DNA from: a virus
Taxonomy: Duplodnaviria; Heunggongvirae; Uroviricota; Caudoviricetes
DNA length: 8,949 bases
Strand: one strand, 5' to 3'
IMG/VR virus record: IMGVR_UViG_2713896828_000008
The notes under the pieces were generated by a model. That model saw only the letters and a program-made list of their open reading frames with translations, did no database searches and was not told the origin of the DNA. The position numbers were made by a program, and so were the translations under genes. This document shows positions 1 to 8,949 of this stretch, in pieces; positions within the stretch are counted from its first letter, which is position 1; each line of letters opens with the position of its first letter.

Positions 1-192
1 TCAGGAGCATTTCTGATTAACGCCACCGTTAAGAATCCACCCTTCAACAGCTTCACGAAGGTATGATTTGGGGTGGGTTCTGACTGGCTTCGGAAATCCG
101 TGTCGTTTGGTATAGTTCCAGATTGTCTGACGTGATGAAACACCGAGCTTGTTCATCACTTCTTTCTCAGGAATCAGGCTGGTATCGGTCAT
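1..192 (-). CDS. AlpA-family (P4/CP4-57 type) helix-turn-helix regulator / excisionase-like protein, 63 aa
   Basis: Complete minus-strand ORF: ATG at 192-190, stop at 3-1, GGAG about 8 nt upstream of the ATG. Translation MTDTSLIPEKEVMNKLGVSSRQTIWNYTKRHGFPKP...EAVEGWIL has the HTH followed by the FPKP...W..E.W pattern I associate with AlpA-type regulators. Family assignment is from memory, not a search. Confidence 0.55.
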   Translation of the reverse strand: MTDTSLIPEKEVMNKLGVSSRQTIWNYTKRHGFPKPVRTHPKSYLREAVEGWILNGGVNQKCS

Positions 193-204
193 CTTAATTC
201 TCCA

Positions 205-233
205 GGCAAAAAGAAACCGCCATCAGGCGGCTT
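205..233 (-). terminator. candidate intrinsic terminator on the minus strand between the zinc-ribbon gene and the AlpA-like gene
   Basis: On the minus strand, GC-rich hairpin (plus coordinates 217-221 CCGCC pairing with 226-230 GGCGG, loop ATCA) followed by the run UUCUUUUUG (plus 207-215). It lies only about 13 nt before the AlpA-like start codon, so it may act as an attenuator rather than a full stop. Confidence 0.35.
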
Positions 234-296
234 GGTGTTCTTTCAGTTCTTCAATTCGAATATTGGTTACATTGTTTTCATATATGAATAAATAAA

Positions 297-476
297 TTAG
301 CTTTTTTCGTTGCCTTCGCGTTCTTTATTAATTTTAACAAACTCGTTTTTACCACGCTCTCCAAATGCGTCTTTAGAGTCGTTGTATCCGCAATCGCAGC
401 ACACATAATCACCAGACCATCCACGCATTGTTTTTTCTTTTGCAATATTTCCAGAACCGCATTCTGGGCAAGACAT
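297..476 (-). CDS. small zinc-ribbon protein (CxxC-x19-CxxC), 59 aa, function unknown
   Basis: Hand translation of the minus strand: ATG at 476-474, TAA at 299-297, giving [59 protein letters not shown]. Missing from the ORF track only because it is under 60 aa. CPEC...CCDC spacing fits a zinc ribbon, with a Lys/Glu-rich tail. Confidence 0.55.
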
Positions 477-488
477 ATCACGAACCTG

Positions 489-1070
489 ATGAAAAAACTG
501 GAGACGATAGGATTCGACACCAAAAAAGACCTGCTTATCTCGGTTGGCGATTTGGTCGATCGCGGTACAGAGAACGTCGAATGCCTGGAATTAATCACAT
601 TCCCCTGGTTCAGAGCTGTACGTGGAAACCATGAGCAAATGATGATTGATGGCTTATCAGAGCGCGGAAACGTCAATCACTGGATGCTTAATGGCGGTGG
701 CTGGTTCTTTAATATCGATTACGACAAAGAAATTCTGGCTAAAGATCTTGCCCATAAAGCAGATGAACTTCCGTTAATCATCGAACTGGTGAGCAAAGAT
801 AAAAAATATGTCATCTGCCACGCCGATTATCCTTGTGACGAATACGAATTTGGAAAGCCAGTTGATCATCAGCAGGTAATCTGGAACCGCGAACGAATCA
901 GCAACTCACAAGACGGGATCGTGAAAGAAATTAAAGGCGCGGACACGTTCATCTTTGGTCATACGCCAGCAGTGAAACCACTCAAGTTTGCCAACCAGAT
1001 GTATATAGATACCGGCGCAGTGTTCTGCGGAAACCTCACATTGATTCAGGTACAGGGAGAAGGCGCATGA
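489..1070 (+). CDS. Ser/Thr protein phosphatase, lambda NinI (ORF221) type, 5'-truncated and possibly inactive
   Basis: 193-aa ORF with metallophosphatase motifs GDLVDRG and RGNHE and near-identity to lambda phosphatase as I recall it. The ORF starts at a position equivalent to about residue 29 of the lambda protein, so the N-terminal GDxHG metal-binding motif is absent. In-frame stop at 405-407 and non-phosphatase sequence upstream; no Shine-Dalgarno before the ATG at 489. Stop overlaps the Q start (ATGA at 1067-1070). Confidence 0.8.
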
Positions 1071-1690
1071 GACTCGAAAGCGTAGCTAAATTTCATTCGC
1101 CAAAAAGCCCGATGATGAGCGACTCACCACGGGCCACGGCTTCTGACTCTCTTTCCGGTACTGATGTGATGGCTGCTATGGGGATGGCGCAATCACAAGC
1201 CGGATTCGGAATGGCTGCATTCTGCGGTAAGCATGAACTCAGCCAGAACGACAAACAAAAGGCTATCAACTATCTGATGCAATTTGCACACAAGGTATCG
1301 GGGAAATACCGTGGTGTGGCAAAGCTCGAAGGAAATACTAAGGCAAAGGTACTGCAAGTGCTCGCAACATTCGCTTATGCGGATTATTGCCGTAGTGCCG
1401 CGACGCCGGGCGCAAGATGCAGAGATTGCCACGGTACAGGCCGTGCGGTTGATATAGCAAAAACAGAGCAGTGGGGGAGAGTTGTTGAGAAAGAGTGCGG
1501 AAGATGCAAAGGTGTCGGCTATTCAAGAATGCCAGCAAGCGCAGCATATCGCGCTGTAACGATTCTAATCCCAAACCTTACTCAACCCACATGGTCACGC
1601 ACTGTTAAGCCGCTGTATGACGCTCTGGTGGTGCAATGCCACAAAGAAGAGTCAATCGCAGACAACATTTTGAATTCGGTCACACGTTAG
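1067..1690 (+). CDS. Q: late-gene antiterminator Q (lambda type), 207 aa
   Basis: Full-length [31 protein letters not shown]... with zinc-binding CRDCHGTG...CGRCKG, essentially the lambda Q protein as recalled. Sits immediately upstream of a PR'-like promoter and the lysis cassette. Confidence 0.93.
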
Positions 1691-1732
1691 CAGCATGATT
1701 GCCACGGATGGCAACATATTAACGGCATGATA

Positions 1733-1761
1733 TTGACTTTTTGAATAAAGTTGGGTAAATT
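1733..1761 (+). promoter_or_regulatory. PR'-like late promoter with overlapping Q-utilisation (qut) region
   Basis: -35 TTGACT at 1733-1738 and -10 TAAATT at 1756-1761 with a 17-nt spacer, followed by TTGACCCAACGATGG, which resembles the lambda PR' initial transcribed region. Position (about 45 nt after the Q stop) matches lambda organisation. Confidence 0.6.
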
Positions 1762-1796
1762 TGACCCAACGATGGATAAATGCACTCGTTAAATAA

Positions 1797-1830
1797 AGCC
1801 CTGAGTTAATAGCTCGGGGCTTTTTGCGTT
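1797..1830 (+). terminator. intrinsic terminator in the late leader (tR'-equivalent)
   Basis: Hairpin 1797-1805 AGCCCTGAG pairing with 1813-1821 CTCGGGGCT (9 bp, one G-U wobble, 7-nt loop) followed by TTTTTGCGTTTT at 1821-1830. Confidence 0.6.
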
Positions 1831-1968
1831 TTAAGCACGGCCTTTCTGAAAGCACATCAAACCAAATACCAGACAGACAAAAATAATCACCTTATCCGCT
1901 GTGGCTACGTTGTGGTGTGCTTTGCATAAAAGAAAACCAGCTCAATGGCTGGCTTCGTGAAAGCGGGT

Positions 1969-2004
1969 GGCAGGAGGTCGCGCTAACAACCTCCTGCCGT
2001 TTTG
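1969..2004 (+). other. stable stem-loop followed by a short U-run upstream of S, terminator-like
   Basis: GGCAGGAGG at 1969-1977 pairs perfectly with CCTCCTGCC at 1990-1998 (9 bp, 12-nt loop), then GTTTTG. Lies in the stretch that resumes lambda-like sequence ahead of S. Confidence 0.35.
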
Positions 2005-2102
2005 CCCGTGCATATCGGTCACGAACAAATCTGATTGCTAAACACAGTAGCCTGGATTTGTTCTATCAGTAATCGACCTTATTCCTAATTAAATAGAGCA
2101 AA

Positions 2103-2132
2103 TCCCCTTATTGGGGGTAAGACATGAAGATG
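2103..2132 (+). promoter_or_regulatory. S translational control region: sdi-type hairpin sequestering the SD plus dual start codons (Met1/Met3)
   Basis: CCCC at 2104-2107, TTATT, GGGGG at 2113-2117 forms a hairpin over the G-rich Shine-Dalgarno. S begins ATG-AAG-ATG (2124 and 2130), the lambda S107/S105 dual-start arrangement. Confidence 0.5.
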
Positions 2133-2447
2133 CCAGAAAAACATGACCTGTTAGCCGCCATTCTCGCGGCAAAGGAACAAGGCATCGGGGCAATCCTTGC
2201 GTTTGCAATGGCGTACCTTCGCGGCAGATATAATGGCGGTGCGTTTACAAAAACAGTAATCGACGCAACGATGTGCGCCATTATCGCCTGGTTCATTCGT
2301 GACCTTCTCGACTTCGCCGGACTAAGTAGCAACCTCGCTTATATAACGAGCGTGTTCATCGGCTACATCGGTACTGACTCGATTGGTTCGCTTATCAAAC
2401 GCTTCGCTGCTAAAAAAGCCGGAGTAGAAGATGGTGGAAATCAATAA
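2124..2447 (+). CDS. S: class I holin S (lambda type), 107 aa with dual start
   Basis: [39 protein letters not shown]... with three hydrophobic segments and a charged C-terminus; near-identical to lambda S as recalled. Confidence 0.95.
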
Positions 2448-2907
2448 TCAACGTAAGGCGTTCCTCGATATGCTGGCGTGGTCAGAGGGAACTGATAACG
2501 GACGACAGAAAACCAGAAATCATGGTTATGACGTCATTGTTGGCGGAGAGCTATTCACTGATTACTCCGATCACCCTCGCAAACTTGTCACGCTAAACCC
2601 AAAACTCAAATCAACAGCAGCCGGACGTTACCAGCTTCTTTCCCGTTGGTGGGATGCCTACCGCAAGCAGCTTGGACTGAAAGACTTCTCTCCGAAAAGC
2701 CAGGACGCTGTGGCATTGCAGCAGATTAAGGAGCGTGGCGCTTTGCCGATGATTGATCGTGGTGATATTCGTCAGGCAATCGACCGTTGCAGCAATATCT
2801 GGGCTTCACTGCCTGGGGCTGGTTATGGTCAGTTCGAGCATAAGGCTGACAGCCTGATTGCAAAATTCAAAGAAGCAGGGGGAACGGTCAGAGAGATTGA
2901 GGTATGA
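2431..2907 (+). CDS. R: endolysin R (lambda-type lytic transglycosylase), 158 aa
   Basis: [51 protein letters not shown]... matches lambda R as recalled. Start overlaps the S end by 17 nt, as in lambda. Confidence 0.95.
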
Positions 2908-3341
2908 GCAGAGTCACCGCGATTATCTCCGCTCTGGTTATCTGCATCATCGTCTGTCTGTCATGGGCTGTTAATCATTACCGTGATAACGCCATCGCCT
3001 ATAAAGAACAGCGCGATAAAGCCACGTACATCATCGCTGACATGCAGAAGCGTCAACGTGATGTAGCAGAACTCGACGCCAGATACACAAAGGAGCTTGC
3101 TGATGCTAACGCGACTATCGAAAGTCTCCGTGCTGATGTTTCTGCTGGGCGTAAGCGCCTGCAAGTCGCCGCCACCTGTGCAAGGTCAACGACCAGAGCC
3201 AGCGGCATGGGCGATGGAGAAAGCCCAGGACTTACAGCAGATGCTGAACTCAATTATTACCGTCTCCGAAGTGGAATCGACAAGATAACCGCGCAGGTTA
3301 ACTACCTGCAGGAATACATCAGGATGCAATGCCTGAAATGA
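2904..3341 (+). CDS. Rz: i-spanin Rz, 145 aa
   Basis: N-terminal transmembrane segment ([18 protein letters not shown]) then a charged coiled-coil-like periplasmic domain. Start overlaps the R stop (ATGA at 2904-2907). More diverged from lambda Rz than S and R are from their lambda counterparts. Confidence 0.9.
3103..3288 (+). CDS. Rz1: o-spanin Rz1, lipoprotein embedded in the +1 frame of Rz
   Basis: ATG at 3103 preceded by AAGGAG at 3090-3095. Signal peptide [20 protein letters not shown] with a lipobox (VSAC), then a proline-rich mature region [14 protein letters not shown]. The track ORF 3097..3288 starts at an upstream TTG; the ATG at 3103 is preferred. Confidence 0.8.
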
Positions 3342-5094: not shown

Positions 5095-6314
5095 CCTCGA
5101 TTAATCCTATCTTTGAACCGTTCATTGAGGCGCATCGCTACAAAGTCGCCAAAGGCGGTCGAGGTAGCGGTAAGTCATGGGCAATTGCTAGGCTGCTTGT
5201 TGAAGCGGCGCGTCGTCAGCCAGTGCGTATTCTCTGCGCTCGTGAACTGCAAAACAGTATCAGCGATTCGGTAATCCGGTTGCTTGAAGATACCATCGAG
5301 CGGGAAGGGTATTCGGCTGAGTTTGAAATTCAGCGTTCAATGATTCGTCATCTCGGTACGAATGCTGAATTCATGTTCTACGGCATCAAAAACAACCCGA
5401 CGAAGATTAAATCGCTCGAAGGCATTGATATCTGCTGGGTGGAAGAAGCGGAAGCGGTAACGAAGGAATCATGGGATATCCTGATACCAACCATCCGCAA
5501 GCCGTTTTCCGAAATATGGGTGAGCTTTAACCCGAAAAACATCCTCGACGATACCTATCAGCGATTCGTCGTAAATCCTCCCGATGATATTTGTCTGCTG
5601 ACAGTGAACTACACCGACAACCCGCACTTTCCTGAAGTTCTCCGTCTGGAGATGGAAGAGTGTAAACGCAGAAATCCGACACTGTATCGTCACATCTGGC
5701 TTGGTGAGCCAGTAAGCGCAAGTGATATGGCAATCATCAAACGTGAATGGCATGAAGCCGCAACCGATGCGCACAAGAAACTCGGATGGAAAGCGAAAGG
5801 CGCTGTTGTCTCTGCGCATGACCCATCAGATACAGGGCCAGATGCTAAAGGTTATGCATCGCGTCACGGTTCGGTAGTTAAGCGCATTGCTGAAGGTCTG
5901 CTGATGGACATCAACGAGGGTGCTGACTGGGCTACTTCGCTGGCGATTGAAGACGGTGCTGACCACTACCTGTGGGATGGCGATGGCGTTGGTGCCGGGC
6001 TACGCAGACAGACAACGGAAGCGTTCTCCGGCAAGAAAATCACCGCCACGATGTTCAAGGGCAGCGAATCGCCATTCGATGAAGATGCTCCGTATCAGGC
6101 CGGAGCATGGGCTGATGAAGTAGTACAGGGCGACAACGTTCGCACTATTGGCGATGTGTTCCGCAATAAGCGAGCGCAATTCTATTACGCGCTGGCTGAC
6201 AGGCTGTATCTAACCTGCAGAAGCTTGGTAAGGTTGCTGATAACGAGACTATTTCAAAACTTCAGTCCTATCGTGATGAGCTTGTTCGCAATGCTGGTCC
6301 AGATGGTCCGGTAA
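5091..6314 (+). CDS. terminase large subunit (TerL), C-terminally disrupted; ATPase domain intact
   Basis: Walker A VAKGGRGSGKS and Walker B-like DICWVEEAE. N-terminus resembles P22/Sf6-type large terminases as recalled. The last ~30 codons (about 6215-6314, ...LTCRSLVRLLITRLFQNFSPIVMSLFAMLVQMVR) look like out-of-frame low-complexity sequence and the ORF is about 60-90 aa short of typical TerL length. Likely a pseudogene or truncated allele. Confidence 0.85.
   Translation: MTSINPIFEPFIEAHRYKVAKGGRGSGKSWAIARLLVEAARRQPVRILCARELQNSISDSVIRLLEDTIEREGYSAEFEIQRSMIRHLGTNAEFMFYGIKNNPTKIKSLEGIDICWVEEAEAVTKESWDILIPTIRKPFSEIWVSFNPKNILDDTYQRFVVNPPDDICLLTVNYTDNPHFPEVLRLEMEECKRRNPTLYRHIWLGEPVSASDMAIIKREWHEAATDAHKKLGWKAKGAVVSAHDPSDTGPDAKGYASRHGSVVKRIAEGLLMDINEGADWATSLAIEDGADHYLWDGDGVGAGLRRQTTEAFSGKKITATMFKGSESPFDEDAPYQAGAWADEVVQGDNVRTIGDVFRNKRAQFYYALADRLYLTCRSLVRLLITRLFQNFSPIVMSLFAMLVQMVR

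Positions 6315-7196: not shown

Positions 7197-8949
<1,753 letters not shown>

Follow-up and report, generated by a model that had tools for sequence, protein, structure and literature searches.

A 5'-truncated ninI gene abutting eag very probably marks a microhomology deletion in a P22-like prophage at sbcB of Escherichia coli

The prophages DLP12, Rac and Qin of Escherichia coli K-12 are remnants that have lost internal blocks by deletion and through insertion sequences (IS), and have kept a Q-type antiterminator and a lysis cassette. The element analyzed here is like them in kind and differs in being P22-like, in its location at sbcB and in having its own breakpoints. It has two intact relatives. 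Sf101 (NC_027398), a complete Lederbergvirus, has the same integrase and AlpA-xis module and the same eag gene (97.4% DNA identity), shares a lambda-type ninI-Q region (97.3%), and has the same overall gene order and the same sbcB attachment core. An undeleted prophage of E. coli AVS0171 (NZ_CP124355) occupies the same sbcB site and encodes AlpA, holin, endolysin, DUF2560 and small-terminase proteins that are identical to those described below. In contrast to complete Sf101, the present locus lacks the equivalent of Sf101 positions ∼20352-34322 (13,974 bp), a segment of ∼311 bp between xis and eag, and most of the virion genes. The AVS0171 prophage differs from it in having an intact int, a 13.5-kb early region, a full-length ninI, another type of Q, and one more ORF, located between xis and eag.

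The window (the whole stretch of DNA analyzed, 8,949 bases) is 100% identical to positions 1844333-1853281 of the chromosome of E. coli KBN10P04869 (NZ_CP026473), a strain separated by 36 SNPs from an ST410 isolate in a study of ST410 genomic epidemiology (PMC10472685). The region directly adjoins sbcB. Window position 1 corresponds to position 12001 of a 25.7-kb chromosomal locus of this strain (L001). The 13-bp attP core of Sf101 and phage 2851, CGTAATCGTGAAA (PMC4159516), is found at L001 10615-10627, inside the 5' end of sbcB and immediately to the left of int, and represents attL. A second copy, as expected for attR, was not found in the 25.7-kb locus, which covers ∼15 kb to the right. 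Thus, the right end of the prophage has probably been lost or displaced by IS elements. In RefSeq, the genes follow the order integrase pseudogene, HTH regulator, Eag, metallophosphoesterase pseudogene, antitermination protein, holin, endolysin, spanin, Gp49-family protein, DUF2560 protein, small terminase, terminase large subunit (partial), lytic-transglycosylase/DNA-transfer protein (partial), N-terminus of the tailspike, IS100, and the remainder of the tailspike. To judge from this order, the locus is what remains, still colinear, of a P22-like (Lederbergvirus) prophage from which large pieces are gone. Structured RNA was ruled out, as a search of the entire window at Rfam gathering thresholds returned no match. 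The features of the part under study are as follows:

1-20, plus strand: last 20 nt of the tyrosine integrase gene (int, L001 10842-12020 in RefSeq), the remainder of which lies left of the window
1-192, minus strand: AlpA-family small HTH gene (63 aa), convergent with int and overlapping its 3' end
203-270, no strand: conserved lambdoid linker carrying the t'I terminator, a mosaic boundary between the xis and eag modules
214-233, minus strand: intrinsic terminator t'I (8-bp stem that includes 5 GC pairs, then a CTTTTTGCCT tail), from a terminator scan and the annotation of P22 record L06296
297-476, minus strand: eag (P22 eaG, HK620 hkaD), encoding a 59-aa four-Cys zinc-ribbon protein; coding sequence intact
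479-481, no strand: deletion junction, a CAC triplet common to both parents (3-bp microhomology), from base-level alignments
480-1070, plus strand: 'ninI, a 5'-truncated Ser/Thr phosphatase pseudogene (codons 26-221; the first ATG, at 489, is Met29)
1067-1690, plus strand: intact lambda-type antiterminator gene Q (207 aa; Pfam Antiterm, E = 6e-57), its ATG overlapping the stop codon of 'ninI (ATGA)
1733-1823, plus strand: pR'-like promoter (TTGACT-17-TAAATT, 1733-1761) and intrinsic terminator (1795-1823) from a consensus scan, ahead of an intact lysis cassette

The left part of this region is the integrase-proximal corner of the prophage. Window positions 1-481 are 97.4% identical to the int/AlpA/eag corner of Sf101, and parts of it also match other phages: positions 1-270 (3' end of int, AlpA gene and t'I) match HK140 and APC_JM3.2 at 99% identity, and positions from 203/207 to 481 (t'I and eag) are 96-98% identical to P22 eaG, HK620 hkaD, HK633, HK629 and Stx phages. 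In RefSeq, int of KBN10P04869 is a pseudogene interrupted by an internal stop. For the AlpA-like protein, there is a match to PHROG 66 ("excisionase and transcriptional regulator", E = 1.9e-8) and a score of 17.8 bits against Pfam Phage_AlpA, which is sub-threshold relative to the 21-bit cut-off; NCBIfam gave no match, and relatives in the PDB were insignificant. Its gene is 97-99% identical in DNA to those of Sf101, HK140 and APC_JM3.2 and is convergent with int, sharing 20 bp with its 3' end, in all three of KBN10P04869, Sf101 and AVS0171. The same protein accession (WP_000132739.1) is found beside int in the genome containing the window and in the undeleted AVS0171 prophage. This gene is most likely the excisionase (recombination directionality factor) of the prophage. 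The word "excisionase" occurs 0 times in the paper describing Sf101 (PMC4159516).

Eag is identical to Sf101 Eag at 56 of 59 residues (95%), its gene is 96.4% identical in DNA to P22 eaG, and the protein belongs to PHROG 2945 (E = 8e-31). The translation contains CPEC and CCDC, which fit the CxxC...CxC zinc-ribbon signature and place it in the Eag family. The score against Pfam PF14354 (Lar_restr_allev) is 21.8 bits, below the 28.6 cut-off, and matches to small zinc-finger proteins of the HVO_2753 type are likewise sub-threshold. In the PDB, only insignificant matches were found, so that structure gives no basis for assigning Eag a function. Eag is very widespread in lambdoid and P22-like phages, where restriction alleviation of the Lar type might be a candidate lead. 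In the P22 record L06296, eaG is annotated as an ordinary gene of the pL operon, with a ribosome-binding site 7-12 nt upstream of its ATG.

The xis and eag modules meet at the t'I linker. Matches of the P22/HK620 type begin at 203-207 and those of the HK140 type stop at 270, and the linker segment is annotated in L06296 as identical to lambda 29106..29165. Alternative combinations on either side of this conserved linker are found in viable phages, as expected for an exchange of modules: eag is present without the AlpA gene in P22, HK620, HK633, HK629 and Stx phages, and the AlpA gene is present without eag in HK140, APC_JM3.2 and O157 prophages. The region between xis and eag varies further. 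Compared to window positions 193-233, Sf101 (L002 1752-2110) and the AVS0171 prophage (L006 19193-19640) have an extra segment of 311-420 bp, which is bracketed by two similar terminator hairpins sharing AAACCGCCAT and, in AVS0171, contains a hypothetical ORF of 114 aa. A single hairpin is present at the t'I linker in both the window and HK140, suggesting either a deletion between short homologous sequences or a mosaic alternative.

To the right of the junction, the sequence is that of a lambda-type ninI-Q region: window positions 479-1700 are 96.8-98.3% identical to HK544, HK106, mEp234, Sf101 and lambda. The 193-aa ORF at 489-1070 (plus strand) corresponds over its whole length to residues 29-221 of the lambda phosphatase structure (NinI, PDB 1G5B; E = 7e-127). 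Identity is ∼95% and extends to two motifs, GDxxDRG (GDLVDRG, at residue 20 of the ORF) and GNHE (at residue 46). The first-pass annotation, which had the phosphatase start at about residue 29 of the lambda protein, was therefore right about the ORF, and ninI-derived DNA begins a little further upstream, at 479/480. Its distance of 13 nt between ATG489 and the zinc-ribbon start codon at 476 also holds. Compared to lambda NinI, the fragment lacks the first 25 codons, including GDLHG with Asp20 and His22, which leaves the PPP signature incomplete. The GDxHG motif is one of three signature motifs that carry the metal ligands in PPP phosphatases (PMC535813). A search of the 193-aa ORF for GD.HG found none; in Sf101, lambda and the AVS0171 prophage, the GDLHG codons (Gly19-Gly23) lie just ahead of the breakpoint. 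Specific roles of Asp20 and His22 in the lambda phosphatase have reportedly been described by Zhuo et al. in 1994 and Voegtli et al. in 2000; our search of the open-access literature for mutagenesis of these two residues found nothing relevant.

Expression signals are missing from the fragment as well. No Shine-Dalgarno sequence precedes ATG489 (catatcacgaacctgATG), in agreement with what had been read from the DNA initially for both this site and the GDxHG motif. The reading frame upstream of 489 is open, antisense to eag, and contains no ATG, GTG or TTG codon. NCBIfam PRK11439 scores 223 bits over profile positions 33-218, compared to an equivalog cut-off of 326, as befits a gene that is not full length, and RefSeq labels it "metallophosphoesterase, incomplete; missing N-terminus" (a partial pseudogene). 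Since 'ninI lacks Asp20 and His22 of the GDxHG motif, its native start codon, its Shine-Dalgarno sequence and the pR promoter, it is regarded as a pseudogene. The remnant is almost certainly inactive, given the missing ligands, which agrees with the earlier expectation that it would probably be so.

We aligned the eag side of the joint with Sf101, P22 and HK620, and the ninI side with Sf101 and lambda. Identity on the eag side is near-perfect up to window position 481 and random beyond it, while identity on the ninI side is random before 479 and near-perfect thereafter. The two sides share the triplet CAC, which is formed on the ninI side by the last base of Tyr25 and the first two bases of Thr26, and on the eag side lies 3-5 nt upstream of the eag ATG. 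With both flanks at 97-98% identity (E = 0 or ∼1e-130) and a break that is sharp within 3 bp, the pattern is not due to chance. Beyond CAC, the only shared sequence is a coincidental in-register AATATTT ∼30 bp to the left. This is too little for homologous recombination, and a route through extended homology is thus rejected. Several mechanisms could account for a microhomology of 3 bp, and a match of this length is little more than might arise by chance. The break falls inside codon 25/26 of ninI, the ribosome-binding site of eag is lost and all essential early genes are gone, unlike the arrangement at the t'I linker. The deletion took the native GGAGG Shine-Dalgarno sequence of eag (…CACTACCTCC… on the plus strand) together with the pL promoter, and the minus strand upstream of eag now reads ...CATCAGGTTCGTGAT-ATG.

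The intact relatives reveal what should lie between the two halves. In Sf101, the corresponding CAC triplets are at L002 2350-2352 and 16324-16326, 13,974 bp apart. This interval contains the pL operon (with ead/Ea22-like genes, abc2, genes for erf-type recombination, kil and cIII), ral and N; the rest comprises genes for a LexA-type repressor, cro, cII, a replication protein, a primase/helicase, ninA-ninH, and the first 25 codons of ninI. In a BLAST comparison with the AVS0171 prophage, the better comparator, window positions 207-481 correspond to L006 19627-19901 and positions 479-1069 to L006 33399-33989, with exactly these same breakpoints 13,500 bp apart; the AVS0171 ninI after the breakpoint is identical to that of the window (MKKLETIG...). 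How large the lost segment was (13.5-14 kb), and exactly what it contained, is estimated from these relatives in place of the true progenitor.

The joint is restricted in its distribution. Of 5,426 complete E. coli genomes, 50 contain the full length of a 100-mer spanning the junction. The match is 100% identical in each of them and usually lies at ∼1.85 Mb, and the other E. coli matches listed cover only the ninI half, from 479 on. The one carrier that was checked against the literature, KBN10P04869, belongs to the ST410 lineage. The 50 genomes are 100% identical over 1.7 kb, so that their identity reflects clonal descent and not selection. An assembly artefact was ruled out, since the joint is common to 50 independent complete assemblies. 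The AlpA gene and eag co-occur, but without the joint, in some 45 further E. coli genomes. A search of 50,697 phage records found the joint in none of them; all 243 of the phage records matching ninI-Q stop at 479, none continuing into the left part. The exact junction 28-mer, GGCAAGACATATCACGAACCTGATGAAA, has no match in the GTDB species-representative genomes. It is present in two IMG/VR contigs, UViG_2713896831_000006 (L007 6908-6935, minus strand) and UViG_2713896834_000012 (L008 467-494, plus strand). In the second of these the junction has the coordinates that it has in the window, of which this contig may be the source. A non-viable prophage remnant has thus been catalogued as a viral genome fragment.

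Colinearity, exact breakpoints, missing content and clonal distribution are established by these comparisons, and the joint is very probably the scar of one deletion at the CAC microhomology within a P22-like (Sf101-like, Lederbergvirus) prophage at sbcB of E. coli. A single illegitimate recombination at CAC in the integrated Sf101-like prophage would have removed ∼13.5-14 kb, from the ribosome-binding site of eag through codon 25 of ninI, and would have brought the prophage's own int-xis-t'I-eag corner up against the 5'-truncated ninI. The eag corner would abut ninI only because the early genes between them are gone; nothing foreign would have been gained, and the scar would since have been inherited clonally. 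The very short homology leads us to infer a RecA-independent route, by slippage or end-joining.

This reading departs from the initial one, in which a foreign regulatory module (an AlpA-like and a zinc-ribbon gene, such as might come from a P4-like satellite or integrative element) had replaced ninH and the 5' region of ninI. The joint and the loss of the 5' end of ninI were correctly recognized, and a foreign origin might seem to fit two small genes on the strand opposite to the nin genes, the weak AlpA-family similarity of one of them, and the mosaic nature of lambdoid phages. However, the AlpA gene, t'I, eag and the integrase gene are arranged here just as in the standard corner next to int of Sf101-type prophages at sbcB, with order and orientation unchanged. 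Thus, the upstream genes are indeed standard in this lineage, which the first-pass annotation had named as grounds for abandoning its proposal, but they belong to the int/xis corner rather than to the nin region. No DNA was gained and ∼13.5 kb was lost; the break cuts a codon and removes the Shine-Dalgarno sequence of eag, unlike exchanges at gene boundaries, and no phage record has the joint. A foreign replacement is accordingly contradicted and extremely unlikely, and a satellite origin of the pair was rejected, these being the phage's own int-proximal genes and independent modules. As to whether the two genes travel as a pair, the association is not obligate, each occurring without the other in many phages. 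They had been called regulators and described as divergent: both are present and divergent from the phosphatase gene, but they lie together on the minus strand, co-oriented with each other, and with one of them most likely an excisionase and Eag having no known function, the label of regulator is unsupported. It is hardly more credible, and still very improbable, that the 193-aa ORF is a functional, naturally short phosphatase or a non-catalytic derivative translated from Met29. An intact ORF at 489-1070 with GDLVDRG and GNHE retained, an ATGA overlap that would couple it translationally to Q, and identity in 50 genomes are what such a product would have. Against it, the codons for Asp20 and His22 are on the deleted side, the ORF has no Shine-Dalgarno sequence, upstream start codon or promoter-like site, the identity among the 50 genomes is a matter of clonal descent, and the NCBIfam score falls short of the equivalog cut-off (223 compared to 326 bits). 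Homologues from phages and other E. coli among the matches listed extend upstream to a full-length gene, and a naturally short phosphatase family was rejected on this point, as the homologous DNA matches listed all continue into full-length ninI and the breakpoint in the DNA is decisive.

The scar might instead have arisen by recombination between two resident prophages, the one at sbcB and another lambdoid prophage, rather than within one. E. coli genomes usually hold several lambdoid prophages with ninI-Q (a median of 2 matching places per genome), and the Q gene found here (lambda-like, 207 aa) is unlike that of the AVS0171 prophage. However, int, xis, eag, ninI, Q, the lysis genes, the terminases, the DNA-transfer protein and the tailspike are colinear with a single P22-like genome, and Sf101 itself joins the same int/xis/eag corner with a lambda-type ninI-Q at 97% identity. 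Synteny with the undeleted relative extends into the host genes on the left, while an event between prophages normally rearranges the chromosome as well. An origin from two prophages is thus highly unlikely, if a shade less so than the preceding proposals. The possibility that the remnant has been rewired is again very improbable. Rightward read-through from the int side, past a t'I that is weak on the plus strand and antisense to eag, would then express, at a low level, the NinI fragment from Met29 together with the coupled Q. If this were true, ST410 would have a domesticated Q/lysis cassette (serving, e.g., in lysis under stress or in the release of vesicles), whose leader ORF would be a non-catalytic piece of NinI.

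A deletion within one prophage has predictable consequences for the genes around the scar. The eag gene and the AlpA-type xis gene would both be without pL, and eag without a Shine-Dalgarno sequence in addition. We infer from the lost signals and genes that 'ninI, eag and xis are silent, and that the prophage is non-inducible and unable to replicate. The Q gene is intact, and its DNA is 97-98% identical to Q of HK544, Sf101 and lambda. In a scan of both strands of window positions 1-2200, the pR'-like promoter was the only sigma-70-like site found. Since this promoter (1733-1761) lies downstream of Q and is followed by a terminator, the intact Q gene is left without an obvious route of expression.

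Positions 1067-3341 of the window, encompassing Q, the pR'-like promoter and terminator, and genes for the holin, the endolysin and an Rz-type spanin, are all intact. The holin and the endolysin share their accessions with the apparently complete AVS0171 prophage, yet all upstream routes to expression of Q are deleted.

Other scars are present further to the right. A second internal joint is found at 6207-6214, where homology to the terminase large subunit ends at 6211-6214 and that to a DNA-transfer protein starts at 6207, an overlap of ∼5-8 bp. The latter is similar to Sf6 gene 13 and has a lytic transglycosylase domain; RefSeq annotates each of the flanking genes as partial. Lost at this point (∼10-11 kb in Sf6) are the genes for portal, scaffold, coat and head completion, and most of those for ejection proteins. 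The overlap and the missing block indicate a second microhomology deletion, one that would have taken the region from the portal gene to the ejection-protein genes. Finally, IS100 (IS21 family; istA at 7415-8437) is inserted in the tailspike gene after a short fragment encoding the N-terminal head-binding part (7273-7380), all within window positions 7273-8949. The remainder of the tailspike gene is past IS100, outside the window, and is followed by IS421 and IS66 elements (L001 21286-25700).

The components of this locus all come from known families, and their arrangement is a normal product of prophage decay by deletion and IS insertion. A deletion in a cryptic prophage, inherited within the ST410 lineage, left the scar that had looked like a mosaic joint, and this scar defines neither a new regulatory arrangement nor a class of short phosphatases. 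Its importance beyond bookkeeping is small. The 28-100 nt of sequence across the junction form a specific marker, found in 50 of 5,426 complete E. coli genomes, of minor practical value. Prophage predictions and collections of "viral" contigs can include non-viable remnants such as this one. For the biology of these prophages, the locus provides a clean example of a deletion at a 3-bp microhomology, in which the immunity, replication and kil genes were removed and Q and the lysis genes were spared.
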